Shown: positions 1,532-58,314, counted from the stretch's first letter. The stretch is 64,000 bases of DNA from Candidatus Poribacteria bacterium (GCA_965242965.1 OZ251518.1:1440001-1504000); one strand, 5' to 3'. Program-made: numbers and translations. The notes: a model not told the origin generated them from the letters alone.

Positions 1532-2210
1532 GGGTGTTTCATATCTCAATGGAACCTCCCGGTAGGAGAGACCTCCCAGTCTCGATGCAATAGGGCGGCG
1601 CGCCTCCCGGGGTCGCGGCGGCAGAAAGCATCCCTTCATCGTAGGGCGAGGGCCCTCGGATGCCACACGCGCAGGCGAGCGGGTTCCCCGCGCTTGCGTT
1701 CGCGCAAGCCAACCCGCGCGGAGGACAGGCCCCCGCGCTACAGGAGGGCGGCGGAAACCGCCCGGCGAAACGTAGGGCGAGGGACAGGCACTCGCTATGC
1801 CAATAATGAGAGATGTCTCCGGTCTTTAGGTCTGGAAGACCTTAATGTCTATAGTTCCTCGCAACGCGAAGACTCTTAAGGTCTGTAGGACCTTAATGTG
1901 CAGCCGCACCGCGTGGCTTACGGCCTATTTAAGTCCTAACGGAACTTGAAAACGGGCCGACATGTGTTTCTATAGACATGCAGGACCTAAAGGACCTAAA
2001 GAAGCGGGCCTTTGCAAAAACGGCCGCACCAATCACAACGGAGATAATCCTGAAAATCCTATAATCTTGAAAATCCTGCTTCAGACAACTAGAGGCATCG
2101 CGGGGGACAGGCCCCCGCGCTACGGGCCCTAAAAGCGTTCCTTCAAATCGTAGGGCTTGGGCCCTCGCATGCCACCCGCGCCTGCGAGCGGGTTTCCCTC
2201 GCCATCGTTC
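1532..2210. repeat. Mosaic REP-like palindrome cluster (left terminal motif at 1532)
   Basis: GTAGGAGAGACC..GTCTCG, GTAGGGCGAGGG.., GACAGGCCCCCGCGCTAC and AGGTC..GACCTTAATGTCTATAG units; ends approximate. Confidence 0.85.
2046..2082. repeat. Short degenerate tandem repeat (AATCCTG/AATCTTG units)
   Basis: AATCCTGAAAATCCTATAATCTTGAAAATCCTGCT; reverse complement of the CAGGATT/CAAGATT arrays at 57773 and 62986. Confidence 0.6.
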
Positions 2211-2287
2211 GCGCGACCCAACCCGCGCGAAGCGAACACATTCGCTTTTTTCTATAAAAAAAGAGACAAATATGATATACTGATACC

Positions 2288-3010
2288 ATGATTGAAGTCC
2301 TCAATTACCCTCTCACTCAAATTCCCTCGGGTCCGTTTACGATGGGCACTCTCCCTACCGGATTACGCAAGACAGACCCGGAGGAACCGCAACGCAGCGT
2401 CACTCTCGATGCTTACGCCATCGGCACCTACCACGTCACGAACGCGCAATATGCGCAATTCGTTGAGGATACCGATTATCCCGCGCCGCTGTTTTGGGGA
2501 GACGAACGTTTCAACGGCGCAGCGTGTCCTGTCGTCGGCATCAGCTGGCACGATGCGGAGAACTTCTTGGAATGGCTTTGTGCAATCACGGGAGCGGCAT
2601 ATCGCTTGCCGACAGAAGCGGAGTGGGAAAAGGCGGCTCGCGGCACCGATGCCCGCGAATACCCATGGGGAAACGACTGGATTCTCGGAAAGGCAAATAC
2701 CTCAGAGGCGCGACTGAAACGTTTAACCCCGGTCGGCAGCTATCCGGAAGGGGTCAGTCCCTACGGTTGCCATGACATGGCAGGCAATGCATACTCTTGG
2801 TGCAGCGACTGGTTTCACGCGCAAACTTACCAATACTCTCCAAATGAAAATCCGCAGGGAGCGGTTGAAGGACGGAGGAAAGTTATCAGAGGCGGTTCGT
2901 GGGTGGCGCGCGGGAAATTTGCTGCGCGATGTGCAAACCGCGCCGCTTATGAACCCATCCGCGCCGTGCATAACGTGAGTTTCAGAATCGCAATAGACAA
3001 CCCAGGCTAA
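2288..3010 (+). CDS. Formylglycine-generating enzyme (FGE-sulfatase/SUMF1) family protein
   Basis: F.MG...E.P.R.V.L, VTNAQY..F, PV..ISW.DA, RLPTEAEWEKAARG, YPWG, DMAGN, RGGSW, FR motifs. Confidence 0.92.
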   Translation: MIEVLNYPLTQIPSGPFTMGTLPTGLRKTDPEEPQRSVTLDAYAIGTYHVTNAQYAQFVEDTDYPAPLFWGDERFNGAACPVVGISWHDAENFLEWLCAITGAAYRLPTEAEWEKAARGTDAREYPWGNDWILGKANTSEARLKRLTPVGSYPEGVSPYGCHDMAGNAYSWCSDWFHAQTYQYSPNENPQGAVEGRRKVIRGGSWVARGKFAARCANRAAYEPIRAVHNVSFRIAIDNPG

Positions 3011-3072
3011 AAGGTGCCGGTAGGAGGGACATCCTTGTCCCGATACTAGAACGCATCGCGCAGGACAAAAAT

Positions 3073-4194
3073 ATGAAGAAAAAAGACTACCCTCACTTCC
3101 AAACTGCGCTGTTGGAATGGTTCAAAACTTACCAGCGCGAAATGCCGTGGCGGAACACTCGCAACGCTTACTATATCTGGGTATCGGAGGTGATGCTACA
3201 GCAGACGCAGGTCAAGAAAGTGATGGAATACTATCAGAAATTCATTGATAGGTTTCCCACCGTTCAGCATCTGGCAGAAGCGGAACTGCAAACCGTGCTG
3301 AAACTCTGGGAAGGATTGGGCTACTATACGAGAGCCCGAAACCTCCACAAAGCGGCGAAAATTATCGTAGCAGAATTGGATGGAAAAATCCCGAACGACT
3401 ACGCCGATTTCAGGAAACTGCCGGGTGTCGGAGATTATAGTGCCGCCGCCGTGCAAAGCATCGCCTTTAACGCGCCGTATGCTGCCGTAGATGGGAACGT
3501 CAAACGCGTTCTGGCGCGCCTGTTTTACATGAAAAACCCCATCAACGATTCTGCCTCAACGAAGCAATTTCAGGAAAAGGCGGATGCACTGCTCGCGGCA
3601 GAGGCACCGGGAGATTTCAATCAAGCGATGATGGAATTGGGGGCAACAGTCTGCCGCCCACAATCTCCAACCTGCATTGTGTGTCCGGTGCATTCGTTCT
3701 GTCAAGCGTTCCAAACGGCGCGCCAAGACGAGGTGCCTGTCCGCCGGAAATCCAAACCGATACCGGAATATCATCTCGCTGTCGGCGTTATCCACAAAGT
3801 AGGCACCGCCGGAGTTTTGGCGGAATCATCGGCGGAGCCACAAGGCGAAATGTTGATAACGCAGCGGCCTTTAGACGGTTTGCTCGGGGGGCTTTGGGAA
3901 TTTCCGGGCGGAAGACTCGCCGAGGGAGAAACCGCCGAAGATGCCTGCCGCCGAAACATCGCTGAGACAGTCAACCTCTCCGTTGACAATCTGACATACC
4001 TCACCCGCGTACGGCACGCTTTCACCCACTTCAAAATTGTCGTTGATGTCTTCCAATGCGATTATCTAGCAGGTGAGGTTGCGTTGAACGGGCCGATAGA
4101 CGCAAAGTGGATTCGGTTTGAGGAAATTGAGGAATATCCGTTCCCGCGCTCAAATCATAAATTTATTCCGATGTTGAAGGAAAGAAACGGATGA
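3073..4194 (+). CDS. mutY: A/G-specific adenine glycosylase MutY
   Basis: WVSEVMLQQTQV, WEGLGYY.RARNLH, HhH LPGVG.Y.A.A, VDGNV.RVLAR, FeS motif C-X6-C-X2-C-X5-C, C-terminal NUDIX-like GLLGGLWEFPGG. Confidence 0.97.
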   Translation: MKKKDYPHFQTALLEWFKTYQREMPWRNTRNAYYIWVSEVMLQQTQVKKVMEYYQKFIDRFPTVQHLAEAELQTVLKLWEGLGYYTRARNLHKAAKIIVAELDGKIPNDYADFRKLPGVGDYSAAAVQSIAFNAPYAAVDGNVKRVLARLFYMKNPINDSASTKQFQEKADALLAAEAPGDFNQAMMELGATVCRPQSPTCIVCPVHSFCQAFQTARQDEVPVRRKSKPIPEYHLAVGVIHKVGTAGVLAESSAEPQGEMLITQRPLDGLLGGLWEFPGGRLAEGETAEDACRRNIAETVNLSVDNLTYLTRVRHAFTHFKIVVDVFQCDYLAGEVALNGPIDAKWIRFEEIEEYPFPRSNHKFIPMLKERNG

Positions 4195-4196
4195 TG

Positions 4197-5035
4197 CCGG
4201 TAGGAGAGACCTCCCGGTCTCGATGCAATAGGGCTCGCCATCATCCGCGTACTCCAACGATCGCGGGGGACAGGCCCCCGCGCTACGGGAAAAAACGCCC
4301 CTCATCGTAGGGCGAGGGCCTGTCCCTCGCCATCGCTCGCGCTAGGGAAAAACGTCTCTTGTTCTCTTAGGTCCTTTAGGTCCTTAATGTCTATAGCCTG
4401 CGCGCCCGCGAAGAACGCTAAGGTCCTTTAGGTCCTTAATGTGTTTTGATGTGCCGTGTGTTTTCCCATTAAGGACCTAAAGGACCTTGAAAACGGGCAG
4501 ATACGTTTTTCTATAGACATTAAGGTCCTAACGGACCTAAAACGCTACCGCTTGACGATGGAGATCGCGGGGGACAGGCCCCCGCGCTACGGAAAAAACG
4601 GCGTGCGTACCGTAGGGCGAGGGCCCTCGCATGCCACACGCGCATCCGAGCGGGTTTCCCTCGCCATCGTTCGCGCGCAAGGTTCTGTAGGTCAGGATCG
4701 CCAGATCCTGAACCGTTTGTGATCAGGCGATCACAAACTACAGCGGAGAAAACACACATCGGGACGTTAGAGATCGCGGGGGACAGGCCCCCGCGCTACG
4801 ATAAAAAACGGCGTGCGTTACCGTAGGGCGAGGGCCTGTCCCTCGCCATGCCTCGGTCCACCGAACGATCGCGGGGGACAGGCCCCCGCGCTATGATAAA
4901 AACGTCCCCTCACCGTAGGGCGAGGGCCTGTCCCTCGCCATGCCTCGGTCCACCGAACGATCGCGGGGGACAGGCCCCCGCGCTACGGAAAAAAACGGCA
5001 CGTCATCGTAGGGCGAGGGCCTGTCCCTCGCCATC
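4197..5035. repeat. Mosaic REP-like palindrome cluster between convergent genes
   Basis: Alternating GTAGGGCGAGGGCCTGTCCCTCGCC / CGCGGGGGACAGGCCCCCGCGCTAC doublets, ~170-bp palindrome at 4369-4538, GTAGGTCAGGATC doublet. Confidence 0.9.
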
Positions 5036-5048
5036 GTCCTCCTACCAA

Positions 5049-5996
5049 TTACTGAAAACCGAACCGCTCTTCATATTTCTCCCACACTTCATCGGGGATA
5101 GGCGTGCTTGCGGCGCGGACATTCGCTTCCAACTGCTCAACGTTCAGATTGCCGATGTTATTGCCGTGGATGCGCTCTTCGCGTAGACAGAACTGAAGCG
5201 CGAGCTGGAGCAGATTCACATCTTCTTGGAGGCACCACTGCCAGATTTCACGTGCGCGAGGCACATCGCCATCGTTGCGCCAACGTCCCCGCGCAATCTC
5301 GGCATCAATATCCACCCCGGTCAGGATGCCACGCAGGATGGACCAGCCGTTCATCACACCGATATCCGCTTCGGCGGCGACAGGGAGGATCTCATCAACA
5401 GCTGTCTGCCGAACAAGATTGTAGTCGTTGAAGCACAAAATAAGATCGACATCGCCGGTGGCCATCGCCTTCAGATGGAAATCGTGCGGACGCATCCCGT
5501 AGCCGAGGAAGTGGACTAAGCCGCGCGCTTTGCACTGCAGCAGCCCATCCAACGTTCCCCCTTTCTCTAGCGTCGGATCGATTTCACCCGGGTCGTGAAT
5601 AAGCATGCCGTCTAAGTAGTCCGTGCCGAGTAATTCCAGCTGATCTTCCAGATCTGCAATTGCGCGGTCGGCTGAATAATCCGGTCTGCCCTGGCCGTAG
5701 CCTCCCCATTTCGCCGCGGAATGGCAGCAGAGTCTTGCGGTAATGATGACATCTTCGCGCGGGATTTCCTTGAGTGCCAATCCGAGTTTCCGCATCGAGT
5801 CGCCGTAACAGCGCGCGCAATCGAAATGGTTCACACCGATAGATACGGCGTGTTTGACAAGTGCAACGGCATCCTCATCAGAAACGAACCCGAAGTTGTT
5901 GCCAAACCCCTGCGTGCCAAACGGAATAACCGGGATGCTCAATTCGGTTCTCCCTAAACGCCGTCGAGGGAGTGTGGGTAAAGTCTGATGTGTCAT
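5049..5996 (-). CDS. Aldo/keto reductase
   Basis: RRLGRTEL.I..I.FG, G.NHFD.A..YG, L.LL.TDYLD...IH, QLALQF.L; ATG at 5996 preceded by GGAGGA. Confidence 0.9.
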   Translation of the reverse strand: MTHQTLPTLPRRRLGRTELSIPVIPFGTQGFGNNFGFVSDEDAVALVKHAVSIGVNHFDCARCYGDSMRKLGLALKEIPREDVIITARLCCHSAAKWGGYGQGRPDYSADRAIADLEDQLELLGTDYLDGMLIHDPGEIDPTLEKGGTLDGLLQCKARGLVHFLGYGMRPHDFHLKAMATGDVDLILCFNDYNLVRQTAVDEILPVAAEADIGVMNGWSILRGILTGVDIDAEIARGRWRNDGDVPRAREIWQWCLQEDVNLLQLALQFCLREERIHGNNIGNLNVEQLEANVRAASTPIPDEVWEKYEERFGFQ

Positions 5997-6683: not shown

Positions 6684-6717
6684 CGTTTTTCCTTTCGGAT
6701 GCTAAAAATTTCCTTTC

Positions 6718-6746: not shown

Positions 6747-6783
6747 ATGGGTTGATTTTTATCGGGAAATGCGTTATTATATT

Positions 6784-7470
6784 GAAGGTGTTTCATATCT
6801 TGATACGTTCGGTAGGAGAGACCTTCTAGTCTCAATGCTGCACTGGTAGGAGAGACTTCCCGGTCTCGGTGCTGCACTGGTAGGAGAGACCTCCTGGTCT
6901 CGATGTTCCCGTAGCGCGTGGGACAGGCCCACGCGTTGTCCAGCGTCACGTTATGTTTTTAGGTCCTTTAGGACCTACATGTCTATAGATACACGTGTCA
7001 GCCCACGTCAAGGTTCTTTAGGTCATTAATAAAAAACACGCGGCCTCTCAAAGTCTATTAAGGACCTAAAGGACCTTAGCGTTCTTCGCGGGCGCGCGTG
7101 CTATAGACATTAAGGACCTAAAGGACCTAAGAGACGTTTTTTCATCGTAGTGCGGGGGCCTGTCCCCCGCGATGGTTGGATTGCGCGAGGCATGGCGAGG
7201 GACAGGCCCTCGCCCTACGACGAAGGGAAGGCGTTATTTTTTCTAGCGCGGGGGCCCCTCGGATGCCATCCGCGCATCCGAGCGGGTTTCCCCCGCGATG
7301 GTTGGATTGCGCGAGGCATGGCGAGGGACAGGCCCTCGCCCTACGATGAAGGGGGCTTTCTGCCGCCGCGCCCCCGGTAGGCGCGCTGCCCTATTGCATC
7401 GAGACCGGGAGGTCTCTCCTACGGAAAGGTGTACGTTGAGACAAGGCGGGTGTCCATTGAGACCGGGAGG
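6784..7470. repeat. Mosaic REP-like palindrome cluster (left terminal motif at 6784)
   Basis: GAAGGTGTTTCATATCT, three tandem GTAGGAGAGAC..GTCTC units, ~170-bp palindrome 6961-7128, A/A' doublets. Confidence 0.88.
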
Positions 7471-7532
7471 ACGCGCCGTTTTCTTTTTCCGGAAATTTTT
7501 GATAGCCCGGCGTAAATCGGTGAGAAACAGAG

Positions 7533-9803: not shown

Positions 9804-10031
9804 TTACTTCTCCGCTTTAGCGCGAACCGACGGTGATGTTAACTTTGGCGAGTCTTTTCTGGGTTGCGTCTCGGCAAACGTGTATTCGCCGGATTGGCGC
9901 AAGTTGCTTTCCAATGTTTGGCAATATGCAGCCAATAGGCTGACATCGTGCCCGAATTCTGCCGAAATTTCGTGTCGAATTTTGCGAATGTCCTTCACTT
10001 CTTTGCAGGCGAGAATTGTTTCTTTTTCCAT
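9804..10031 (-). CDS. Small protein cotranscribed with PIN-domain gene (putative antitoxin)
   Basis: EV.DIRKIRHEISAEFGHDV motif; ATG at 10031 immediately after the PIN gene stop. Confidence 0.6.
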   Translation of the reverse strand: MEKETILACKEVKDIRKIRHEISAEFGHDVSLLAAYCQTLESNLRQSGEYTFAETQPRKDSPKLTSPSVRAKAEK

Positions 10032-10032
10032 T

Positions 10033-10509
10033 TTAAGGCATCCCTCCCAAAGAGTCAAGAGGTGTCGTTAATTCTGGCGTGGGTAAGCCAAATTCACGAT
10101 TAATCTGAAGAATCAAACCTAACTTATTAGGATTGGCAAGGTGCAGACAATTCCATGTGAGAATCACGTCTACCTCATGAAACGAGGCAACTGCCAAGTG
10201 AAGCGCATCACCTGTTGGGTCTTGAGGCATTATCCCCCTCCCAATATAAGTTTGCGCAATCTGAATAATTTCCACAGTGATCGGCAACATCTCAACGGAT
10301 TTGAGCAAGTTAATCCTATCTTGCGTCGCCGCGCTTTGCCCGCGTCTGAGCTCCAAAATGGTAGTCGCACTTGATGTGAGGATAAAGCGATTCGCGTATA
10401 CACTCCACCACTGACGCGTCAACCTTTTTCGAGTAAGAGCGGCTTCGCTAGTCCGCAAAGTGTAATAGTTACTGGGAATTGATGTCTCAATGTATATACG
10501 TTTTCGCAT
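10033..10509 (-). CDS. PIN-domain (VapC-like) protein
   Basis: IYIETSIPS N-terminus, ..LEL.RG, DALHLA.AS.H.VD..LTWNC.HLAN acidic PIN signature. Confidence 0.85.
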   Translation of the reverse strand: MRKRIYIETSIPSNYYTLRTSEAALTRKRLTRQWWSVYANRFILTSSATTILELRRGQSAATQDRINLLKSVEMLPITVEIIQIAQTYIGRGIMPQDPTGDALHLAVASFHEVDVILTWNCLHLANPNKLGLILQINREFGLPTPELTTPLDSLGGMP

Positions 10510-10520
10510 GGTTGCAACAA

Positions 10521-10549
10521 ATTATACCTTAAAAAAATTTAATTGTCAA
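10521..10549 (-). promoter_or_regulatory. Consensus sigma70 promoter for the PIN gene (near-leaderless transcript)
   Basis: Minus strand TTGACA-N17-TATAAT; -10 ends 11 nt before ATG 10509, no SD sequence. Confidence 0.75.
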
Positions 10550-10582
10550 ATCCAGTGCCATCTCGTCCAGAACTATTTAGTT

Positions 10583-10975
10583 GAGGGTGTTTCATAAATA
10601 CCGATAGAAAAACGAGGGAGGACCGCGCATCGGGCTCACTCTGTAGTTCGGGATCGCCCGATCCCGAACAGGTCAGGATCAGGCGATCCTGACCTACAGG
10701 GGTGACGAGGTCTGCGAGCAAAACGCATGGCGAGGGAAACCCGCTCGCATGCGCGTGTGGAAACCTGCGAGGGACAGGCCCTCGTTCTACGGTGAAGTGC
10801 CGTTTTTTCACCGTAGCGCGGGGGCCTGTCCCCCGCGATCGTTGGAGTGCGCGAGCGATGGCGAGGGAAACCTCGCATGCGCGTGTGGCATCCGAGGGCC
10901 CAAGCCCTACGATGAAGGGGCCCTATTGCATCGAGACCGGGAGGTCTCTCCTACACGGATTTATGAACCACCCTC
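10583..10975. mobile_element. TIR-bounded REP cassette (MITE-like)
   Basis: Left GAGGGTGTTTCATAAAT (10583-10599) and right ATTTATGAACCACCCTC (10959-10975) are 16/17 inverted repeats enclosing only REP hairpins; no obvious TSD. Confidence 0.7.
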
Positions 10976-10996
10976 CGTTAAACTCACCTAAGACTT

Positions 10997-11025
10997 TTGA
11001 CAAAAAACACTTTTTTTGGTATCAT
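10997..11025 (+). promoter_or_regulatory. Sigma70-type promoter for the methyltransferase gene
   Basis: TTGACA-N17-TATCAT followed by AAGGAG SD and ATG 11049. Confidence 0.7.
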
Positions 11026-11048
11026 TTTTCCCATAAGGAGAATTAACA

Positions 11049-12503
11049 ATGCTAATCATGCCTGAAATGAATAGCCTCCACTACGGCGATAACCTCCATA
11101 TCATGCGCACATGGCGCGAGGGATGGGTAGACATCGCTTACGCGGATCCGCCGTTTAACAGCAAGGCGAACTATAACCAACTCTATCGCGTTGAAACCGA
11201 GACAAACCAAGGCACCCGCTCCGCCTCCCTCAAAGCGTTTGAGGATACATGGACATGGGGCGCGCCCGCGGTTGAACGCATTGAACGCATTAAAAATGCC
11301 CCGGCGCATCCCGCCTATAAAGCCATCACCGCGCTTCATATCCTCCTCGGAGACAGCGGCATGATGGCATATCTCAGTTATATGGCGGAACGCCTCGTCG
11401 AAATCCATCGCCTCCTCAAACCCACAGGAAGTCTCTATCTCCATTGCGATAACACCGCGGGAGCGCATCTCCAGATTTTGTTGGACGACATCTTCGGTCC
11501 CAAGCAGTTTCGGAATGCGATTCGATGGTGCTATTCCAACAGCGGCCGTTCAAAACGGTTCTTCGTCAAGAAGCACGATACCATCCTCCTCTACACCAAA
11601 ACCGACGCGGCGTATTGGGGAGATTACCGGATACCGATTAGCGACGAATATCTGGAAAGTCATTATCGGCATGTTGACGAACAAGGACGCAGATGCCGCG
11701 TTCGCGTTGACGCAGGGCAAACGCGAGTCTACTATCCCGAAGAGGGAATGACGTGCAACGATTGGTGGACAGATATTCCATCACTGAACTCTGTCGCGAA
11801 GGAGCGGCTGGGATATCCGACACAGAAGCCGGTCGCGCTGTTAGAACGCATCATTGCGGCCTCATCGAGAGAGGGAGACATTGTGCTAGATCCGTTTTGT
11901 GGCTGCGGCACGACAGTCGTCGCGGCGGATACCCTGAAGCGGCAGTGGGTTGGCGTGGACATCAACCCGATTGCGCTGGATATTATCAAGACGCATCGGT
12001 TTCCGGGACGTGACATTCCTATCACGGGCATCCCTGCGGATTTTGCGAGTGCGGAACGGCTAGCACAGGAAAATCGTCGTCATTTTGAGATATGGGCTAT
12101 CGGCTGCGTGCCGGGCCTCGCGCCGAACGAACGCGGCGGTGCCGATGGCGGGATTGACGGTGTCGGCAACACCGTCGAGAAACCGGGGGATGGTTTCAAA
12201 CCGCTGGTGCTTGCGCAAGTGAAGAGCGGCAAGTTTTCGCTGAGCCATCTCCGCGATTTTCTGCACGTGATAGAACGAGAGAAGGCCGCCCTGGGGATTT
12301 ACCTGACGCTGTTTCCGGTGACATCTCCGAGCGCGGCGGCAGAGATAGCCAACAAAGGCACGGTTATTATCGGCACGGAGACGTTTCCGCGTGTGCAATG
12401 CTATTCAATGTCGGAGCATTTTGATGGGCAGCGCGGCAGGTTGCAGTTGCCGCAGTTGACAGATCCGTATACGGGAAAGCCGTTGCAAAATTTGTTGTGG
12501 TAG
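11049..12503 (+). CDS. Beta-class N4/N6 DNA methyltransferase fused to a C-terminal Mrr-like restriction endonuclease domain
   Basis: YGDNL, DPPF (motif IV), YPTQKP..LLERII.ASS..GD.VLDPFCGCGT (motif I); C-terminus FE.WA, GADGGIDG, QVKSG, LRDF..VIERE.A..G. Confidence 0.88.
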   Translation: MLIMPEMNSLHYGDNLHIMRTWREGWVDIAYADPPFNSKANYNQLYRVETETNQGTRSASLKAFEDTWTWGAPAVERIERIKNAPAHPAYKAITALHILLGDSGMMAYLSYMAERLVEIHRLLKPTGSLYLHCDNTAGAHLQILLDDIFGPKQFRNAIRWCYSNSGRSKRFFVKKHDTILLYTKTDAAYWGDYRIPISDEYLESHYRHVDEQGRRCRVRVDAGQTRVYYPEEGMTCNDWWTDIPSLNSVAKERLGYPTQKPVALLERIIAASSREGDIVLDPFCGCGTTVVAADTLKRQWVGVDINPIALDIIKTHRFPGRDIPITGIPADFASAERLAQENRRHFEIWAIGCVPGLAPNERGGADGGIDGVGNTVEKPGDGFKPLVLAQVKSGKFSLSHLRDFLHVIEREKAALGIYLTLFPVTSPSAAAEIANKGTVIIGTETFPRVQCYSMSEHFDGQRGRLQLPQLTDPYTGKPLQNLLW

Positions 12504-27009: not shown

Positions 27010-27560
27010 CCGGTCTCGATGCTGTAGGAGAGCCCTCCTGGTCTCGATTTTTTGTCGGCGCGCCGTCCCGGTCTCAATTTTCCCGTAGCGCGGGGGCCTG
27101 TCCCCCGCGATCGTTGAATTGCGCGTGCATGAACGATGGCGAGGGACAGGCCCTCGCCCTACGATGAAAGGAAGACGTTTTTATCGTAGCGCGGGGGCCC
27201 TCGGATGCCATACGCGCATCCGAGCGGGTTTCCCCCGCGAGCTCCATCGTCACGATGTATGTTTCCCCCTCTGTAGTTTGTGATCGCCTGATCACAAACG
27301 GGTCAGGATCAGGCGATCCTGACCTACAGAGCCTGGCGAGCGAGGGATGGCGAGGGACAGGCCCTCGCCCTACGGTGAAACGGAGGCGGCCTTGACAACC
27401 GTAGCGCGGGGGCCTGTCCCCCGCGAACGTTCATGTACTCCAGGCATGGCGAGGGACAGGCCCTCGCCCTACGGTGAAACGGAGGCTTTTCTCCTACCGT
27501 AGCGCGGGGGCCTGTCCCCCGCGAGCGTTCGATCGCGCGAGCCATTTATGAAACCCCCTC
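27010..27560. repeat. Mosaic REP-like cluster ending in a right terminal motif that overlaps the downstream stop codon
   Basis: A/A' doublets, D doublet; ATTTATGAAACCCCCTC at 27544-27560. Confidence 0.88.
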
Positions 27561-28927: not shown

Positions 28928-29587
28928 GAGAGTGTTTCATAAATCCGTTGGCACGCCATCCCGGTCTCGATGCGAGCGATGTCCCCCGGTAGGAGAGACC
29001 TCCTGGTCTCGATTTTTCCCGTAGCGCGAGCGATGGCGAGGGACAGGCCCTCGCCCTACGATGAGGGGGAGGCTTTTCTCCTACCGTAGCGCGGGGGCCT
29101 GTCCCCCGCGATCTCCCGCGGGGGCCTGTCCCCCGCGATCTCCCTCGTCACGAGGTGGCGTTTTAGGTCCTTTAGGTCCTATATGTCTATAGCAGCATGT
29201 GTCGTTACGTTGTCAAGGTCCTTTAGGTCTTAATAAAAAACACGCTGCGCGTCAAAGTCTATTAAGGACCTAAAGGACCTTAAATCTCTCCACGAGCGCA
29301 CGAGCTATAAACATTAAGGTCCTACGGACCTAAGAAACGTTTTTTCCCCGTAGCGCGGGGGCCTGTCCCCCGCGATCGTTGGAGTGCGCGTGCCTGAACG
29401 ATGGCGAGGGACAGGCCCTCGCCCTACGGTGAGGGTGGCGTTTTTTTCGTGCGCCTCCTCTGTAGTTTGTGATCGCCTGATCACAAACGGGTCAGGAGCA
29501 GGTGCTCCTGACCTACAGTCGGGGAGCGCAAGCTCAATAGCGCGGAGGCCTGTCCCCGCGACGTTGGGAGATTTAGGAAACACCCTC
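28928..29587. mobile_element. TIR-bounded REP cassette inserted in a 5' UTR
   Basis: Left GAGAGTGTTTCATAAAT (28928-28944), right ATTTAGGAAACACCCTC (29571-29587); lies between promoter 29604-29632 and start codon 28910. Confidence 0.72.
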
Positions 29588-36617: not shown

Positions 36618-37158
36618 GAGGTTGTTTCATAACTCGTTGTTGTCAAAATGGTTTCGTGAGACCTTGAACGATTCCGTTTCCTCGGTAGGAGAGACCTCCT
36701 GGTCTCGATGCAATAGGGCAGCGCGCCTCTCGGGGCAGCGGCGGCAGAAGGTCCCCCTTCATCGTAGGGCGAGGGACAGGCCCTCGCCATGCCTCGCGCT
36801 ACGGGAAAAACGTCTCTTGTTCTCTTCAGGTCCGTAGGACCTTAATGTCTATAGACCCGCGTAGACGCGAAGAATGCTAAGGTCCTTTAGGTCCTTAATA
36901 GACTTTGAGATGCCGCGTGTTTTTTATTAAGGTCCTAAAGGACCTTGCCGTTGTCTGGCACGTTTTTCTATAGATATGGTCCTAAAGGACCTAAAACGCC
37001 ACTCTTGACGACGGAGATCGCGGGGGACAGGCCCCCGCGCTACGATAAAAAAAACGGTTCTTGAGCCATCGCGCGGGACAGGTCCCCGCGTTACGGGAAC
37101 ATCGAGACCGGGAGGTCTCTCCTACGGGGAGGCATCGAGACCGGGAGGTCTCTCCTAC
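36618..37158. repeat. Mosaic REP-like cluster with left terminal motif
   Basis: GAGGTTGTTTCATAACT at 36618; B and A/A' units, long palindrome at ~36828-36992. Confidence 0.85.
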
Positions 37159-37187
37159 CCGGAGGGCATTGATAAAGGAGTTTTCCA

Positions 37188-38970: not shown

Positions 38971-39057
38971 CGGGGATTCTAAACAACCCGCGCGCTTTTC
39001 AGTGGCACGCTTTCAAAGGGAAGTGTTGATAGGCGCGCCGGGTCTTGATGGCTTCCC

Positions 39058-39398
39058 GGTAGGAGAGACCTCCTGGTCTCGATGCAATAGGGCGGCGCGC
39101 CTACCGGGGGCGCGGCGGCAGAAGGTCTCCCTTCATCGTAGGGCGAGGGCCTGTCCCTCGCCATCGTTCGCGCACTCCAACGATCGCGGGGGACAGGCCC
39201 CCGCGCTACGATAAAAAAACGGTTTTTGAGCCATCGCGGGGGACAGGCCCCCGCGCTACGATAAAAAAAACGGTTTTTGAGCCATCGCGGGGGAAACCCG
39301 CTCGGATGCGCGTGTGGCATCCGAGGGCCCCCGCGCTACGGGAGAATCGAGACCGGGAGGTCTCTCCTACGGGGAGGGCATTGATATATGAAACACTC
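39058..39398. repeat. Mosaic REP-like cluster with right terminal motif
   Basis: B and A/A' units; ATATATGAAACACTC at 39384-39398. Confidence 0.85.
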
Positions 39399-39459
39399 GC
39401 AGAGAATCTAGCAGGCCCTAACAAGGAATTCGCAATCATCTATAAGAGGAGAATGAACC

Positions 39460-42084: not shown

Positions 42085-42103
42085 CGTAAAACCGTCCGAA
42101 GCA

Positions 42104-42368
42104 CGTAGCGCGAGGGCCTGTCCCTCGCATGGTTTCGGTTGGAAAAACGCCATCCGCAGTGCCCGTAGCGCGAGGGCCTGTCCCTCGCGTGTTTTCGGTT
42201 GGAAAAACGCCGTCCGTAGTGACCGTAGCGCGAGGGCCTGTCCCTCGCGTGTTTTCGGTTGAAAAAAAGCCATCCGTAGTGACCGTAGGGCGAGGGCCTG
42301 TCCCTCGCGTGGCTTCGCCGAAAAAACGCTATCCGTAGTGCCCGTAGCGCGAGGGCCTGTCCCTCGCG
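42104..42368 (+). repeat. Direct tandem array of a 60-bp REP-containing unit (5 hairpins)
   Basis: CGTAG(C/G)GCGAGGGCCTGTCCCTCGC at 42104, 42164, 42224, 42284 and 42343 with near-identical linkers. Confidence 0.92.
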
Positions 42369-42384
42369 AACTTTCCATTTCATT

Positions 42385-42760
42385 GAGGGTGTTTGATATC
42401 TTGATGGCTCCCCGGTAGGAGAGACCTCCCGGTCTCGATGCATCGCGCATGCGAGAGACTATAGTTCGGGAGTGCCTGCTCCCGAACGGGTCAAGATCGC
42501 TTGGCAAACATGCCAGAGCTTCAGACGATCTTGACCTACAGAGGGGGATGCCTCGTCTTACCGTAGGGCGAGGGTCTGTCCCTCGCCATCGTTCGCACAT
42601 CCCAACGCTCGCGGGGGACAGGCCCCCGCGCTACGGTGTCAGCAGCATTTCTCGCACCGATCTCGGAAGAAACCCGCCCGGATGCGCGTGTGGCATCCGA
42701 GGGGCCCCGCGCTACGGGGAAAAAAACAGCCCCTTGTTGAGCGATTTATGAAACACCCAC
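42385..42760. mobile_element. TIR-bounded REP cassette (MITE-like)
   Basis: Left GAGGGTGTTTGATATCT (42385), right ATTTATGAAACACCCAC (42744-42760). Confidence 0.6.
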
Positions 42761-42790
42761 ATTTCATTAGGGATTCTTTTGGAGGAAAAA

Positions 42791-45453: not shown

Positions 45454-45934
45454 GAAGGGGTTTCATAAATTGCTATGCGTTTGGCTGGCAGACCGCCTCA
45501 CCCCTGTAGGTCAGGATCGCCTGATCCTGACCCGTTCGGGAGCGGGCGCTCCCGAACTACAGAAGTGGGCCCGATGCATCCCGGTAGGAGAGACCTCCCG
45601 GTCTCGATGCAATACCCGGTAGGCGAGACCTCCTGGTCTCGATGCGTTTTGTTGGTGTTTTTATCGGGACAAGGATGTCCCTCCTACCTGGCTCGATTTC
45701 TGCCGGTAGGCGAGACCTCCTGGTCTCGATGCTGCAAGGCTCGGGCGCGCCCCACCTATAGTTCAGGAGCGCCTGCTCCTGAACGCTTTGTGCTCAGGCG
45801 ATTGCAAACGACGATGGGCTTCTCAATGTCTTCCCGATACGGACCACGTTGAGACCCGGGCGGCAGAAATCGAGACCGGGAGGTCTCTCCTACGGGGCCA
45901 TCGCGCGCATCGAGACCAGGAGGTCTCTCCTACC
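45454..45934. repeat. Mosaic REP-like cluster with left terminal motif
   Basis: GAAGGGGTTTCATAAAT at 45454; D, B and C units. Confidence 0.87.
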
Positions 45935-46007
45935 GGGGAAACGGAATCGTTTCGGGGTATCACGAAACCAGAGCACGGCGGTGAGTGGATTATTGAGTTG
46001 TTCTAAA

Positions 46008-48350: not shown

Positions 48351-48485
48351 CGCGTGCAGTTATCCAAATTTGTAATTTGTCGTTTTCACCCGCTTCTCGG
48401 TACCGAACGCATCGAAATATGAAACCCCCTCATCACCCGAAAGCCCCCGTTTCGCGCAAGGAAAAATCGCGCGATGGCCCAAAGG

Positions 48486-49589: not shown

Positions 49590-49686
49590 ATTTCTATCTC
49601 CCTGGGGCAGTACGATTTCGCCGTGTTTGAGCGCGTTTTGCGTCGTGCGAGAACTTCAGACGCGCTCAAACTACAGTAGGTAATGT

Positions 49687-50019
49687 GAAGGTGTTTCATA
49701 AATCGCTCAACGTCGCGGGGGACAGGCCCCCGCGCTACGGTGAAAAAATGGAGAATTGCCGGCGGACCCGCCCGAGCTCAATGTCCGCCGGGTAGGAGGG
49801 ACATCCTTGTCCCGATAACAACATCGAGACCGGGACGGCAAGCCGACAGGAAAAAATTGAGACCAGGAGGTCTCTCCTACGGTATTGCATCGAGACCGGG
49901 AGGTCTCTCCTACCGGGGTGTGCATCGTTTCGGGTAGGAGGGACATCCTTGTCCCGATAACAACATCGAGACCGGGAGGTCTCTCCTAACGGGGACATCG
50001 CTTGCTATGAAACACCCTG
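49687..50019. mobile_element. TIR-bounded REP cassette (MITE-like)
   Basis: Left GAAGGTGTTTCATAAAT (49687-49703), right TATGAAACACCCT (50006-50018); A, B and C units inside. Confidence 0.65.
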
Positions 50020-50020
50020 A

Positions 50021-50821
50021 TTACAAGAGTGACTCCAAATAGTTCCTCGCCTTGCGCATGGCCGCAATAGGCTCGGATTCGCCTTCGTAGACGACAGAGA
50101 GACAGCCGTTATAGCCAACGCCGCGCAAAATATCTAATACGCGCGGATAGTCCAGCCATTGTTCAACCCCACTATCAATCTGGTAAAACTTAGTGCGGAC
50201 ATAGACAGCGTGCGGTGCCGTCTGTTCAATGCTGGCGTAGCAGTCATAATCCGGATGCGATGAACCGCGATGTCCACTCGCACCGGGTGAGCCAGCATAT
50301 TGCCCCGTGTCCAAGATATGCGTGAAATAGGGATGGTTCGTCTCGTTCAAGGCGCGTAAAACGGCATCGCCATCGCGCGTGACGTTGTTGTGGTTGTGAT
50401 TCTGCAACCCGACGAGGATGCCAGCCTGATGCCCGTATTCCGCCACTTCCTGGAACCCCTCAATCATCGGGGGCCACAAGGTTTCCTCGTCTTCGCAGTC
50501 GTCTGGGACATACGCGGCGAAGACCCGCACGAGCGGGCAGCTCATAAACGCCGCTACATCAATCCACTGCTTAATCAGGTTAATCTGCTCGCGGTGCTCG
50601 GCTACGGGGCGGCCGAAATTGTTGCTAACGCCGATGTAGCCGAGTGGCAGACCTTTGCGCATCAGATTCTTCTTTAACTCGCGCAGATACGAGGTATCGG
50701 TGGATTCAAACGCGCTGGCATGCAACTCAATCACGTCAAATCCCAAGTCGTAGACGATTTGCGCGAAGGCAGTAGCCGTAGTATTTCTGACATTGAGGGA
50801 CATTGTGCCGATTTTCATCAT
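50021..50821 (-). CDS. Sugar phosphate isomerase/epimerase (TIM barrel)
   Basis: LGFD.IEL, K.WID.A..M..P.VRVF, GLQNHNH, LDTG, LDY....IL...GY.G.LS..YEG. Confidence 0.87.
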   Translation of the reverse strand: MMKIGTMSLNVRNTTATAFAQIVYDLGFDVIELHASAFESTDTSYLRELKKNLMRKGLPLGYIGVSNNFGRPVAEHREQINLIKQWIDVAAFMSCPLVRVFAAYVPDDCEDEETLWPPMIEGFQEVAEYGHQAGILVGLQNHNHNNVTRDGDAVLRALNETNHPYFTHILDTGQYAGSPGASGHRGSSHPDYDCYASIEQTAPHAVYVRTKFYQIDSGVEQWLDYPRVLDILRGVGYNGCLSVVYEGESEPIAAMRKARNYLESLL

Positions 50822-54281: not shown

Positions 54282-55322
54282 CTACTCTGTCTCCGTCCGA
54301 TACCGAATCGTCAGCACCGGCCGCAGCGGCTCATCTGCATGCTCTTTAGCAGCGAACACCACTTCGCCATTTTCATCTTGCACGGCGAAAAGATAGCCGT
54401 AGTTGTAATCAGGGTTTGCCACCCAAAATCGCACCGCTTCCGTAAGCCGCTCCCCTTTCCAAACGTAGCGTTTGGCGGCATCCGCAATTTCAGTTGTGCT
54501 ATCCACGCGATGCGCCACATCTTCCGAACCGTTGTAATCGCTCTCCTTGTCGCCGTTTATTCCCGGTAACATCGCCTGCGCCGGCGGTTTATTCCACGGC
54601 AGGTTCCGATGGAGCGCGCTGTTATAGGTGAGTTCATTCTCCTCGGCCGGCGACGAGGTGCCTCTCCCTTCGCGCCACGGCAGTAGCACGCGCCGAATCA
54701 GCACAGTCTGCGTCCCTTCGCACTGCTGTGCATGGAGACTTAACGTCGCTTCCAAAACCTGCGCCGGTGCCTCAATGCCCATATCGGCGAAGGCATCAAA
54801 CAAATCAAATGAAACGAAAAAGACACCGCCTGTCGCGCTACAACGCAGAAAGGGTTCCGCGCCAGCATTGTGGTTGCGCGTCTTTCTGTCTTTCGCCACG
54901 ATAAGGTTCGTATCCTGCAGCGTCGAAAATGTGACTGTCTGCCCCGCGCCGAAGGTTATCTCGTTTTCCATCGGAAGTGTGAAAACGATTTCTCCTGTTT
55001 CTGCTGTCGCCTTACCCGCTTGCAACCCCGCGCCTTTTTGCAAAAGGGTATACGCTTTTCCCACAGCCAACGGCGTGGTGAACAGCATCACACGAGTCCC
55101 CCGTTTGTCAAGCAACACATCTTCTATCTGGATATCCGGCGTGATGTGATAATTGGCTGCGTTTTCCGCGGTTTCTGCAGCAAGCTGCCCATCGAATTGT
55201 AACTGAATCGCGGTTTGAGAAAGGGGGAATGCCTTCACAACTTTCGGCATTTCTGCCCAACTGTTTAGGGCAAAAATCGAGAAAAATAGCGCGGCGGCAC
55301 CCGCGCCTTTAAAAATTTTCAA
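54282..55322 (-). CDS. Secreted protein with Ig-like N-terminus and DNRLRE/CBM96-like domain
   Basis: GGAGG SD before TTG 55322; signal peptide; F......AEN.ANY.I; QDT, ATL.L, W.EG.G, V..WV.NP..NYG, RP.L.I.Y. Confidence 0.65.
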   Translation of the reverse strand: MKIFKGAGAAALFFSIFALNSWAEMPKVVKAFPLSQTAIQLQFDGQLAAETAENAANYHITPDIQIEDVLLDKRGTRVMLFTTPLAVGKAYTLLQKGAGLQAGKATAETGEIVFTLPMENEITFGAGQTVTFSTLQDTNLIVAKDRKTRNHNAGAEPFLRCSATGGVFFVSFDLFDAFADMGIEAPAQVLEATLSLHAQQCEGTQTVLIRRVLLPWREGRGTSSPAEENELTYNSALHRNLPWNKPPAQAMLPGINGDKESDYNGSEDVAHRVDSTTEIADAAKRYVWKGERLTEAVRFWVANPDYNYGYLFAVQDENGEVVFAAKEHADEPLRPVLTIRYRTETE

Positions 55323-55407
55323 AATGCACCTCCAAAACGGGCAAAACGGGGGGATAGGGACATCCTCTGACGCACGAGGAATGTCAAGGCACAGATATAG
55401 AAATCCG

Positions 55408-56619
55408 CTAATCCACATCCATCGTAATAAAAACGGCATTCAATACCTCCCGTTCGCTTTGTCCGGAAGGTTTGTTGATAACTGCATCGTTGACGACAAA
55501 GGTGCTAGACGAGCCGCCGTCAAGATTAATCGCTTCAGTCGCGCCGAACTCAATGAGGAGACTGGCGAGTTCATAGAGTGTTAAACCGGTGCTATACTGC
55601 GGCTGTCTCCCATCAGCAACGACGAGGAATAAGGTATCCGCATTGTAGCCGAGGGCAGTGCGCGGTTCATGACTCAGATTTAGCACGGATGTCCGCTTCC
55701 CGGGACGATGTTTCTTCTCGGCTTCGTGCATCTTCACCAGCGTCGGGTTTATCATGCCGTTCGTGAGGAGTCGGAGCCGGCCGCCAATTGCATGCCGCGC
55801 CCGATTCCAACTCGGCGGCGAGAGGGTGAGCGTCACCGTGCCTTCCACGCCTTCATTGAATGCGGAGACAGCAGGCGTTTTCACCCGTGAACTTATCCAG
55901 AGAACAGCACCGTCCCTTGGAATCGCGCTGTTTCCATCTTTCGTCACGCCGTTCACACGGTAAGGTTGCGTATAATGCGGCGTTAGCGGTAGGAGCGAAC
56001 TCCCGGCAAGGACGACTTCTTGTCCACGGCGACGATTCGTGCGGGTGGATGCTCCCATCCGCGGCGTGTAAAGCGTCACCTCACAGCCATCAAGCCGCCG
56101 CTGATTAATGCATCCAAGTGACAGCGTGTGCGTGCCTATCGTCACCGACGCTTGCATCTCAACGGGCCCGGTAAGAAACTCGCCTGTGTCGGTGACACCG
56201 AAACAGGCATCGACATCTGTCGGCTGCGTCATCAATTCGCCATCTTGGATGTGTAAATTTTCCAAGACACCGCCGTAACCGCGCATATCCCCGAGCACGC
56301 CGAAGCCGCCGTTGACAGCGACAAGGACGCGCCTATCCCCCCGTTTTGCGCGACGCTGTGCCATGGAGCGCACGGTTTCTTTCCCCAGAATCTGTGCATT
56401 CGCAAGCGATACCTCAACATGCAACGTCGGTTGATGCCGAGACATCTCGGCGACATACAGCACGCACGTTTCAACATCCCAATCGTAGCGATAGAGCCGG
56501 AGCCCAGAAGACAATTCGGTGGAAAATAAATCCGTTTTTTCACCGCCGGCTTGCGCGAAGAGGGGAGTCAAAAGCAGGAAGCAGAAAAGGCACAGGAATG
56601 GGAAAATATGACGTTTCAT
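55408..56619 (-). CDS. Phosphodiester glycosidase (NAGPA/DUF2233) family protein
   Basis: Signal peptide, VAVNGGF, PRTALG, VVADGRQ..YS.G.TL.ELA, GA.EAINLDGGSSS, IN.PS. Confidence 0.9.
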   Translation of the reverse strand: MKRHIFPFLCLFCFLLLTPLFAQAGGEKTDLFSTELSSGLRLYRYDWDVETCVLYVAEMSRHQPTLHVEVSLANAQILGKETVRSMAQRRAKRGDRRVLVAVNGGFGVLGDMRGYGGVLENLHIQDGELMTQPTDVDACFGVTDTGEFLTGPVEMQASVTIGTHTLSLGCINQRRLDGCEVTLYTPRMGASTRTNRRRGQEVVLAGSSLLPLTPHYTQPYRVNGVTKDGNSAIPRDGAVLWISSRVKTPAVSAFNEGVEGTVTLTLSPPSWNRARHAIGGRLRLLTNGMINPTLVKMHEAEKKHRPGKRTSVLNLSHEPRTALGYNADTLFLVVADGRQPQYSTGLTLYELASLLIEFGATEAINLDGGSSSTFVVNDAVINKPSGQSEREVLNAVFITMDVD

Positions 56620-57011
56620 AGGCTTGGCTGCCCTTGCATTCGTTGATATGTTTCGTCCTTTGTCCGCCGAATCTGAACGGCGAAATAGGCAATCGGATGT
56701 TCGATGGGTGGATGAAGTTTCTTGACGGTGAGATGCACTTCATCCACCGCGAACTGCGCGAGAATCGCTGTCGCTATCGCCTCAGCGAGTGCTTCAATGA
56801 GTTGGAACGACTGCCGCGTGCCGATATCGACGATGAGCGTTACCACTTCGGCGTAGTCAATCGTTTCATCAAGAGCGTCGGTTTTGCCGGCATCGGCAAG
56901 CGAACAGCCTAACGTTGCATCGACTTCATAATGGCCGCCCACCTGCCGTTCTTCTGCGGGCACCCCGTGGTGGCCGTGAAATCGGATGCCTTTGAGGATA
57001 AGTTTATCCAT
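56616..57011 (-). CDS. folB: Dihydroneopterin aldolase
   Basis: MDKL.LKG.RF.G.HGV..EE..VG..Y.VD, D.L..TIDY.EV, LIEALAE.IA, V.K..PP; several in-frame upstream starts are possible. Confidence 0.93.
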   Translation of the reverse strand: MDKLILKGIRFHGHHGVPAEERQVGGHYEVDATLGCSLADAGKTDALDETIDYAEVVTLIVDIGTRQSFQLIEALAEAIATAILAQFAVDEVHLTVKKLHPPIEHPIAYFAVQIRRTKDETYQRMQGQPSL

Positions 57012-57066
57012 TTTTTCTCGGCCATTTTTTCTTGAGGCCATTTTTTCTCGCGGCTGCGCGCCGGTT

Positions 57067-57681
57067 TTAGTTGACAATCTTCTCGCCTACCTCATGGCCA
57101 GGCTCAACCAGATCGCGAATCTGTTTGCCGTTCTTCCCGGCGGTGTAGTCAATGGCGCGGATTTTCCACTCGTCCTTCTGCTTTCTGAGCGTGGAATAGA
57201 GGTCACCGCCTTGATTGCCCCACATATATTTGCCGTGCAGAACGGCATCCTTGCCGCGGCTATCAATGGCGATGTAAGCGATATCCACGTTCATTTTCCC
57301 GCCGCGGAGCTGGAAAATCCCTTCCCAGGCTTTATTCACGGCGTTCCAACCGTCATTCCGTTCAAAGGTGCCGGCCCAAAATGTCCACGCCGTAAACACT
57401 TCGTCTTCCTGCTTCTCGCTTTTGAACCAGGTATCGCCTAGGATATCAATATCCTGTTCGCCATGGGCGATGGCATAAACTTCGTAAAGCGCGCGAATCG
57501 CCTCCTCTTCGGCGGCGAAGTCAATGTTCCTCTCAAAGGTTACCGCTGGTTCCGCGGGAGTTGCTGTCGGAGTTTGTGTCGTCGTTGGAGCTTCGGTATC
57601 TGCTGCGTCGTCGCCGCCGCATGCCATCATACCCACGGCGAGTCCGAGGATGAGAAAATAACAAATCGCTTTCGGTTTCAT
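57067..57681 (-). CDS. Lipoprotein with NTF2/SnoaL-like domain
   Basis: GAGGAG SD, lipobox MMACGG, Thr/Pro linker, EEEAIRALY..Y..A....D.D, GW.AV...W, WKI. Confidence 0.7.
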   Translation of the reverse strand: MKPKAICYFLILGLAVGMMACGGDDAADTEAPTTTQTPTATPAEPAVTFERNIDFAAEEEAIRALYEVYAIAHGEQDIDILGDTWFKSEKQEDEVFTAWTFWAGTFERNDGWNAVNKAWEGIFQLRGGKMNVDIAYIAIDSRGKDAVLHGKYMWGNQGGDLYSTLRKQKDEWKIRAIDYTAGKNGKQIRDLVEPGHEVGEKIVN

Positions 57682-57772
57682 AACGATTCTCCTCTTTTGA
57701 AGATAAATAAACTGATATTATTCTAGCATGTCTAGCGAATAAAAGTCAAGGTTAAATTTTGGCGCGGGGTGC

Positions 57773-57870
57773 CAGGATTATCAAGATTCGCCAGAGATGA
57801 GCAGGATTTGCAGGATTATCAAGATTCGCCAGAGATGAGCAGGATTTACACGATTTACAAGATTAGCAAG
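57773..57870. repeat. Short tandem repeats (CAGGATT/CAAGATT) with a duplicated ~38-bp unit
   Basis: CAGGATTATCAAGATTCGCCAGAGATGAGCAGGATTT at 57773 and 57811. Confidence 0.8.
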
Positions 57871-57877
57871 ATAAGAC

Positions 57878-58314
57878 TGTAGTTCGGGAGCACCTTCTCC
57901 CGAACTGCACATGGAGAGGAGGACTTCCTGGCCCGTAGCGCGGGGGCCTGTCCCCCGCGATCGTCAACTTACGCGAAAACCGCACGCCGACAAAGGCCGT
58001 TTCCCCGATCGAGGCACGGCGAGGGACAGGCCCTCGCCCTACGGTAAACGGCACGCTTTTCTTAACCGTAGCGCGGGGGCCTGTCCCCCGCGATCACACC
58101 CGTGAAAAAATTTCTTCAGAAACTCTGCAGCGGTTTATCTCTGTAGAGCAAGAGCACCTGCTCTGGATCCGTTTCGGGAGCGGGTGCTCCCGAACTACAG
58201 ATCTGGGGCAGGTCGGGCGATCGCGGGGGACAGGCCCCCGCGCTACGGGCCAGGACGAAAAAACGCGCGGGCGACAACCTAATAGGCCACCGCCCGCGCG
58301 AGATATGAAACAAT
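57878..58314. repeat. Mosaic REP-like cluster with a degenerate right terminal motif
   Basis: D and A/A' units; AGATATGAAACAAT at 58301-58314. Confidence 0.85.

Follow-up and report, generated by a model that had tools for sequence, protein, structure and literature searches.

A probable miniature transposon frame carrying REP units in a Candidatus Poribacteria genome

In a 64-kb stretch of a Candidatus Poribacteria genome (C1:1440001-1504000, herein referred to as the window; the genome, G000, comprises 5.70 Mb in two contigs with 54% G+C), clusters of repetitive extragenic palindromic (REP) units are repeatedly edged by a short motif that points into the cluster, raising the question of whether this motif is the end of a mobile element that carries the REP units, a neighbor that landed beside them or a site that serves the host. 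The initial annotation of the window had read the motif as the terminal inverted repeat (TIR) of a non-autonomous element, possibly mobilized by a DDE transposase, with HUH-type REP units inside. We conclude, with a probability of about 0.88, that the motif is the TIR of a non-autonomous miniature inverted-repeat transposable element, or MITE, that holds a cargo of GTAG-tagged REP units and is mobilized in trans by a DDE-type insertion sequence (IS) with the same ends. The polarity of the motif, target-site duplications, empty sites and the existence of a DDE IS with the same ends all bear out that early reading, and from them we infer mobilization in trans.

The motif (GAGGGTGTTTCATAAAT, 17 bases) occurs at 14 sites in the window when up to three mismatches are allowed, against 0.16 expected, and none of 100 shuffles exceeded two. 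Eight sites lie on the plus strand (1530, 6784, 10583, 28928, 36618, 42385, 45454 and 49687) and six on the minus strand (10959, 27544, 29571, 39384, 42744 and 48415). Together they recover 14 of the 16 sites that had been annotated, the leftmost of which is real and had been placed two bases off, at 1532; the other two are weak. One of these, annotated at 50006, has its actual core at 50003-50019 and is detected by the profile search alone (E 0.96), and the other, at 58301, retains just the inner half of the motif (TGTTTCATA) and is not counted. All four complete pairs that had been recognized by eye are real (table 1), as is the solo relic at 48415, a minus-strand site outside all listed repeat clusters. 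The motif was also rightly described as no hairpin; its DNA fold reaches −2.2 kcal/mol (z −1.66), a value that 14 of 200 shuffles match. Among the 23 repeat clusters of the window, 4 hold a complete pair, 6 carry one end and 13 carry none, two of the last being gene-family repeats without a GTAG unit.

Throughout G000, of which high-copy short repeats make up 9.4% (of 5.7 Mb), the motif is present in 222 exact copies and in 1005 copies with up to three mismatches, all on contig 1. Neighboring copies face one another: among consecutive copies at most 1 kb apart, 291 are arranged inward, 25 outward and 11 and 14 in the two tandem orders. When repeat DNA is defined as 14-mers present at least 15 times in G000, it covers 80% of the 100 bases inside the motif versus 7% of the 100 bases outside, and 879 of the 1005 copies have it on the inner side only, 6 on the outer side only and 98 on both, while 22 have it on neither. 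The 419 unpaired copies behave alike (inside only at 345 versus outside only at 4). Across the whole genome, the orientation of the motif relative to repeat clusters is hence strongly non-random, and 879 copies set against 6 clearly dispose of a random arrangement. In a sequence logo of all copies, the conserved stretch begins 8 bases outward of the motif and reaches to about 20 bases past its start; beyond this stretch, no conservation extends outward, and inward the copies run into mixed repeat families. Apart from the target consensus described below, conservation ends sharply at the outer G of GAGGG. Elements measure 69-1200 bp (median ~430 bp, both ends included).

No convincing target-site duplication had been noticed in the window by eye; such duplications do exist, 8 bp and sometimes 9-10 bp long, in 149 of the 293 inward pairs of up to 1.2 kb that we used for duplication tests, and in one of the four window pairs. 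They are visible in the shortest pairs (52-200 bp between motif starts), where direct repeats stand just outside GAGGG...CCCTC (e.g., ACTTACAT, CTTTAACT and AGTTTACCT). The 8 flanking bases on the left equal those on the right in 63 of the 293 pairs and differ by a single base in 35 more, against 1 and 2 for shuffled partners; when flank matches of 8-10 bp are considered, 93 pairs match perfectly and 149 with at most one mismatch, against 0.85 and 5.9. Of the perfect duplications, 63 are 8 bp long, 26 are 9 bp and 4 are 10 bp, and a few have other lengths; a test of the register favors 8 bp over 7 bp. With a G+C content of 16% in the duplicated sites and A-N-T-T-A-A-N-T as their consensus, the target is AT-rich (ANTTAANT); the consensus accounts for the outer part of the motif logo. 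In the window, the pair at 42385-42760 is flanked by a perfect duplication (ATTTCATT) and the other three pairs lack one. We also observed ends that stand back to back at a spacing of exactly 8 bp, four times in G000 (C1:658550, 1204954, 2596136 and 3695474) and once in another genus (L011:2384-2425 in genome G010); in the one case having both partners, the 8-bp spacer is the right element's duplication (ACTTAAAT), so the second element was inserted directly against an existing end. In G001, another genome of the same genus, an element of canonical length (L067:6095-6400) has an imperfect direct repeat of 14 bp on its flanks (ACTGAGGTTCCTCT and ACTAAGGTTCCTCT), which exceeds the 8-10 bp usually seen.

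Filled and empty sites, which we compared within G000 and, in pieces, with the two other genomes of its genus (G001 and G002), place the element's boundaries exactly at the motif's outer end, in two paralogous cases in G000 and in one orthologous case between G001 and G000. The element at C1:2879605-2879856 splits another high-copy repeat, in ~180 unsplit copies of which the two flanks are continuous and share a single copy of the 8 duplicated bases. A 441-bp, REP-rich element (C1:4648025-4648466) is missing from a tandem paralogue, with AGTAAAGT found twice at the filled site and once at the empty one, and G000 lacks, at the orthologous site, a 198-bp element of G001 whose duplication measures 10 bp with one mismatch. 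The repeat that is split at C1:2879545-2879916 is a separate ~240-bp sequence rich in TAAGGTCC/GGACCTTA words that lies in many clusters (window 1820-2000, 4360-4540, 6950-7140 and 29160-29340), and its ~180 copies in G000 are the empty sites of a single MITE insertion. The motif is nearly confined to G000: a 15-mer of it, searched with at most one mismatch, has 807 matches there, 8 and 1 in the two genomes of the same genus and 0-7 in 28 other relatives.

An IS with the same termini as the MITE, and with a DDE transposase, is found in sister genera. Several motif matches in G006 lie ~120 bases from contig ends, where they adjoin the 3' end of a transposase gene, and near them lies a 198-bp MITE with different contents and the duplication ATATAAGT. 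Six full IS copies with 8-bp duplications are present in other Poribacteria genomes (L026, L021, L023, L025, L030 and L031), among them one of 1110 bp in G119 (L026:1472-2581, duplication AATATAAT), whose ends equal the G000 consensus over 17 bases, and one of 1102 bp in G016 (L021:961-2062, duplication AATTATAT), which holds a 332-aa open reading frame (ORF). The 332-aa protein matches the Pfam domain DDE_Tnp_1_3 at 40.6 bits (cut-off 27). Its best NCBIfam model is IS982, at 59.7 bits versus a cut-off of 130, so it is not an IS982 member by the NCBI criterion, and the IS1182 and IS5 models match weakly; judged from these profiles, the transposase appears distantly IS982/IS5-like and is best left unclassified. 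Of the 151 genomes of the order, 59 have homologues; the 2 other genomes in the genus of G000 have none. A search of 5.8 billion proteins gave 907 relatives at E ≤1e-10, and among the 120 of them listed, nearly all are 332 aa long and many lie on ~1.1-kb contigs.

The G000 MITE consensus has only the terminal 15-19 bp in common with this IS, and the elements are small (69-1200 bp) and appear to encode no transposase of their own, as judged from the consensus rather than from a protein search of every interior. One relic of the IS is recognizable in G000 (C1:2371362-2371746), where an intact end stands beside transposase fragments interrupted by stop codons, and an even fainter transposase trace lies beside the single end of G002. 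A profile search of G000 with Pfam DDE_Tnp_1_3 returned no match. Since G000 holds only this relic, the MITE family is probably immobile at present. Among long TIR pairs in G000 (0.9-8 kb, with matching flanks), we identified 11 candidates for an autonomous copy, and the ORFs of six showed no obvious transposase by eye, without a family search; because targets are AT-rich, matching flanks of such long pairs arise by chance. A self-comparison of G000 for IS-sized repeats returned mostly multi-copy genes. The Y1_Tnp domain has two matches in G000, one of which is an IS200/IS605-type element, L001 (C1:3123891-3127127), which has an intact 408-aa TnpB-like ORF and a TnpA broken by two TGA codons and is unrelated to the motif.

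The cargo consists of REP units of the HUH-associated type, as had been proposed: GTAG-tagged units with a G+C-rich hairpin, often arranged as inverted doublets, lie inside the elements, and a gene for a REP-associated tyrosine transposase (RAYT) is present in the genome. A scan that requires a perfect or nearly perfect hairpin after the GTAG, and misses one abundant unit with a 6-bp stem, counts 6254 units in G000 (3163 and 3091 per strand), set against 433 on one strand of a reversed-sequence control. The RAYT gene, one in G000 (C1 ~3147499-3147972), matches REP_Tyr_transpos at 120.5 bits (cut-off 80) and has 13 GTAG units within ~600 bp, on both sides; the motif is absent up to a distance of 3.5 kb from it. 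The motif itself contains no GTAG and no significant hairpin and is hence not a GTAG palindrome. One 25-base REP unit has 2452 copies in G000, 428 in G001, 360 in G002 and 0-1 in 18 genomes of other genera, so the REP family is common to the genus and the MITE is not; going by these counts, the REP family predates the MITE burst. Some REP units contain a second hairpin of ~24 bp in their loop (GGGGCCCTCGGATGCC...CATCCGAGCGGGTTTCCCC; window 27190-27240, 7245-7300 and 4610-4665) and look as if one palindrome had been inserted into another.

How far frame and cargo belong together can be read from the layouts of the pairs. The 293 pairs enclose 946 of the 6254 GTAG units (~15%), usually 2-4 per element and at most 14. 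Clustering of the pairs at 80% identity over 90% of the length yields a family of 57 (227-304 bp) and ten smaller ones with 2-6 members each, and leaves 208 layouts unique; eleven layouts thus recur, each at 2 to 57 loci. Members of the 57-member family have identical REP units, fixed in order and position, at loci with differing duplications, so the REP units moved inside the frame; several layouts have moved as whole units. Seventy-four elements cover at least 85% of the consensus of this family in one stretch, and their mean identity of 85% to it implies that the burst is not recent. The unique layouts are mosaics of the same modules in changed orders and orientations. Duplications with at most one mismatch flank 104 of the 208 unique layouts versus 45 of the 85 repeated ones (and 35 of the 83 elements longer than 500 bp); given that duplications are equally frequent in unique layouts and in families, each such pair represents one insertion with unique content. 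Much of the cargo variety probably arose in place.

The association of REP clusters with the motif is partial. The initial annotation had described REP clusters as bracketed by the motif, which holds for 234 two-ended and 400 one-ended clusters and fails for the 1298 without an end, among the 1932 repeat clusters of at least 40 bp in G000. Copies of the 25-base REP unit lie to 69% in clusters without an end and to 11% inside pairs. Since only about a third of clusters carry the motif and 69% of one REP unit type sits in end-less clusters, REP clusters as a whole cannot be regarded as cassettes of this MITE. Edges that lack the motif start directly with GTAG units, and a degenerate motif was detected at 26-31 of 2390 such edges versus 1 in the control. 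We considered decayed ends as the general origin of bare cluster edges; the count of 26-31 among 2390 does not support this, except if clean deletions remove ends, a case seen in one G001/G000 comparison. Three comparisons of these two genomes show that such loci are fluid: at one site, an 863-bp element in one genome stands opposite a ~480-bp element with other cargo in the other, the junctions one base apart; a two-ended 263-bp element of G001 corresponds to a one-ended 490-bp cluster of G000; and a one-ended cluster of G001 matches an end-less cluster of G000, from which it differs by 66 bp that lie between short stretches of matching bases.

Several results weigh against a REP-carrying MITE moved by this IS. 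No recognizable duplication flanks 144 of the 293 pairs, including three of the four in the window, and hence some pairs may be the ends of separate events or may have been rearranged. An intact transposase was found neither in G000 nor in the two genomes of the same genus, so that mobilization is deduced from other genera. No clean empty site for the window's own elements was found in G002, because the intergenic DNA there is replaced or not alignable: the genes are syntenic at 84-90% identity, and the intergenic DNA fails to align at 6784, 9828-11035 and 49590-50022, homology at the one-ended element at 6784 ending 3 bp before the TIR, where G002 has a gene instead. At two loci, elements of G001 and G000 differ at one and the same site with junctions 1 bp apart, which implies repeated insertion or remodeling. 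Finally, the 208 unique layouts among the 293 pairs either moved once in that form or were remodeled in place.

The strongest competitor takes the motif pairs as brackets rather than cassettes: transposon ends landed beside existing REP clusters, or REP units filled MITEs already resident, and the REP units would be a secondary content throughout, never carried. Such a history would leave what is seen: REP units of one type shared by the three genomes of the genus (2452, 428 and 360 copies), ends nearly confined to G000, 69% of 25-base units in end-less clusters and 144 pairs without a duplication; the similar share of duplications among unique and repeated layouts (104/208 vs 45/85) fits change after insertion. 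We nevertheless consider this account unlikely. The 57-member family and the ten smaller ones share REP units and their order across loci with different duplications, the 441-bp REP-rich element is wholly absent at the paralogous empty site, and a chance landing predicts both orientations, of which the one facing away is seen at only 6 of 1005 copies. A purely secondary origin is thus contradicted by the multi-copy layouts and may still hold for part of the unique ones.

Two further accounts detach the motif from a DDE transposon altogether. The tight linkage of the motif to GTAG REP units could mean that it belongs to the HUH/RAYT system and moves by single-strand transposition. Target duplications mark staggered double-strand cuts, not the Y1 HUH transposition of the IS200/IS605 family, and here they are direct and 8-10 bp long; moreover, six sequenced copies have a DDE transposase gene between these same ends, and the 3.5 kb on either side of the RAYT gene are free of the motif. 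Such an origin thus strikes us as highly improbable, even though one account reports RAYT genes with long terminal inverted repeats unrelated to GTAG repeats, the TIRYT repeats, which would provide a parallel (PMC3733652). A site at REP cluster edges that binds a host protein or marks a boundary, like the integration host factor (IHF) site in some Escherichia coli bacterial interspersed mosaic elements (BIMEs), would agree with the fixed position of the motif at cluster edges, its frequent location near promoters of flanking genes and its failure to form a hairpin. This view is scarcely credible when the duplications, the empty sites and the IS with the same ends explain the motif without any host function, the motif is almost absent from two sister genomes that have the same REP family and two-thirds of the clusters do without it. 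An IHF-like binding site in particular was dropped as a candidate, as no match to the IHF consensus was recognized in the motif.

We hypothesize that a MITE with 17-19-bp TIRs was moved by cut-and-paste, in trans, by the DDE transposase of a ~1.1-kb IS with identical ends. Staggered cuts at the AT-rich, near-palindromic target ANTTAANT would have produced the direct duplication of 8 bp or, less often, 9-10 bp, and the element would have expanded in this Poribacteria lineage to ~290 complete and ~400 one-ended copies. The transposase gene would have decayed afterwards, leaving MITE copies that are probably fossils. The interior of the MITE holds no IS sequence; it is filled with GTAG REP units, whose repeat class is linked to RAYT, an HUH tyrosine transposase. 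These units were in the genus before the burst, and the majority of them lie outside MITEs. The cargo may have changed in place through the gain or duplication of REP units or through recombination with neighboring REP clusters, and the same processes would also strip one end from an element and thereby generate the one-ended forms. A tentative extension, to which we would give clearly less than even odds, is that the two systems are functionally coupled: the MITE would ferry REP units to new AT-rich intergenic sites, and RAYT-dependent gain or REP-driven recombination would enlarge and reshuffle the cargo in place and strip ends.

The elements of the window are collected in table 1. At two of them, the comparison with G002 also revealed differences in gene content. 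Opposite window 6780-7490, G002 (L034) has a gene whose product begins MNATERNHF and is, by eye, a candidate Uma2-type endonuclease, and at window 9828-11035 a PIN-domain gene (10033-10509) and the MITE at 10583-10975 fill 1.2 kb where G002 has only 50 bp between the equivalent flanking genes. Among the other genes of the window, an N6/N4 DNA methylase gene (11049-12503) has a weak Mrr-like C-terminal match and many paralogues at 65-87% identity in both sister genomes; a 1444-aa protein with lamin-tail domains, encoded on the minus strand at 58323-62657, belongs to a multi-copy family with ~8 similar stretches in G000 and more than 12 at 72-77% identity in G002. The window additionally encodes a PSCyt1/PSCyt2/PSD1 protein.

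Table 1. MITE-type elements and ends in the 64-kb window (positions counted from its first base)
Feature	Coordinates	Strand or ends	Details
Complete TIR-to-TIR element, 393 bp	10583..10975	TIR cores 10583-10599 (+), 10959-10975 (-)	3 GTAG hairpin units; without matching target duplication
Complete TIR-to-TIR element, 660 bp	28928..29587	TIR cores 28928-28944 (+), 29571-29587 (-)	6 GTAG units; copy of the ~240-bp TAAGGTCC-type repeat; without matching target duplication
Complete element 42385-42760, 376 bp	42377..42768 with duplication	Perfect 8-bp target-site duplication ATTTCATT at 42377-42384 and 42761-42768	Adjoins unbracketed REP cluster 42103-42384
Complete element, 333 bp	49687..50019	Right TIR degenerate, core 50003-50019, profile E 0.96	Without matching target duplication
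One-ended element	1530..2215	+	Left TIR 1530-1546 points into 686-bp repeat cluster; right TIR not found
One-ended element	6784..7470	+	Left TIR 6784-6800 points into 687-bp cluster
One-ended element	27010..27560	-	Right TIR 27544-27560 points into 552-bp cluster, 8 GTAG units
One-ended element	36618..37162	+	Left TIR 36618-36634 points into 540-bp cluster
One-ended element	39047..39400	-	Right TIR 39384-39400 points into 350-bp cluster
One-ended element	45454..45951	+	Left TIR 45454-45470 points into 495-bp cluster
Solo TIR relic	48415..48431	-	Outside all listed repeat clusters

In every feature that was tested, the frame is that of an ordinary MITE, and the cargo is made of ordinary GTAG REPs. 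As in other trans-mobilized MITEs, the TIRs are short, the duplications direct and the elements small, high-copy and intergenic, and an IS with the same ends exists. What differs is the interior, which is a variable mosaic of GTAG REP units that are also found free in the genome, and is neither a deleted IS nor a single conserved sequence; only 15-19 terminal bases are common with the IS, 208 of the 293 layouts are unique and ~400 elements are one-ended. Insertion sequences of the IS982 family duplicate 3-9 bp of their target, and the pneumococcal BOX element ends in boxA and boxC. The cognate IS resembles the IS982 family (NF033520) in its size of ~1.1 kb, its single ~330-aa DDE_Tnp_1_3 ORF, its short inverted ends and a duplication within that range, and departs from it in a transposase that scores 59.7 bits, below the cut-off of 130. 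Compared by layout rather than by sequence, the nearest analogue is the BOX element, likewise modular and non-autonomous, in which conserved ends enclose internal modules in variable number (PMC3184786); unlike the REP units here, the internal modules of BOX are not an independent repeat class with a transposase of its own.

Known bacterial MITEs include Correia/NEMIS, RUP and Nezha, according to two accounts (PMC3733652, PMC3184786), and the GTAG tagging of REPs and their link to RAYT are described in the first of these. The cargo shares with REPs, BIMEs and REP doublets forming hairpins (REPINs), as these are portrayed together with RAYT in three papers (PMC3733652, PMC3116915, PMC2817692), the GTAG tag followed by a G+C-rich hairpin, the inverted doublets and a single REP-flanked RAYT gene; those descriptions mention no DDE-type TIRs and no 8-bp duplication, whereas ~15% of the units here stand in such a frame. 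The TIRYT repeats, as described, flank RAYT-like genes (PMC3733652), unlike the ends studied here, which flank a DDE gene in sister genera and do not occur within 3.5 kb of the RAYT gene of G000. We found no description of a MITE frame combined with GTAG REP cargo in the open-access literature, nor any report there of MITEs or REPs in the Poribacteria, an uncultivated phylum of sponge symbionts.

MITEs and REPs have been treated as separate classes of small bacterial repeats, as in the two accounts cited above (PMC3184786, PMC3733652); in G000, members of one class serve on a large scale as building material of the other, with ~1000 transposon ends and more than 6000 REP units. This genome is hence a natural data set on how REP clusters grow and move and on the interplay of two non-autonomous elements with different chemistry, as it offers hundreds of dated insertions with known boundaries, sister genomes that are almost free of the MITE and intact transposases in neighboring genera. 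There is also a practical side, since MITEs break short-read assemblies of Poribacteria and many motif matches lie at contig ends. If frame and cargo are functionally coupled, part of the present REP clusters would be former MITEs, part of the sevenfold excess of REP units in G000 over its sister genome would be owed to the MITE burst, and the two would form a two-tier mobile system that joins cut-and-paste and HUH chemistry.

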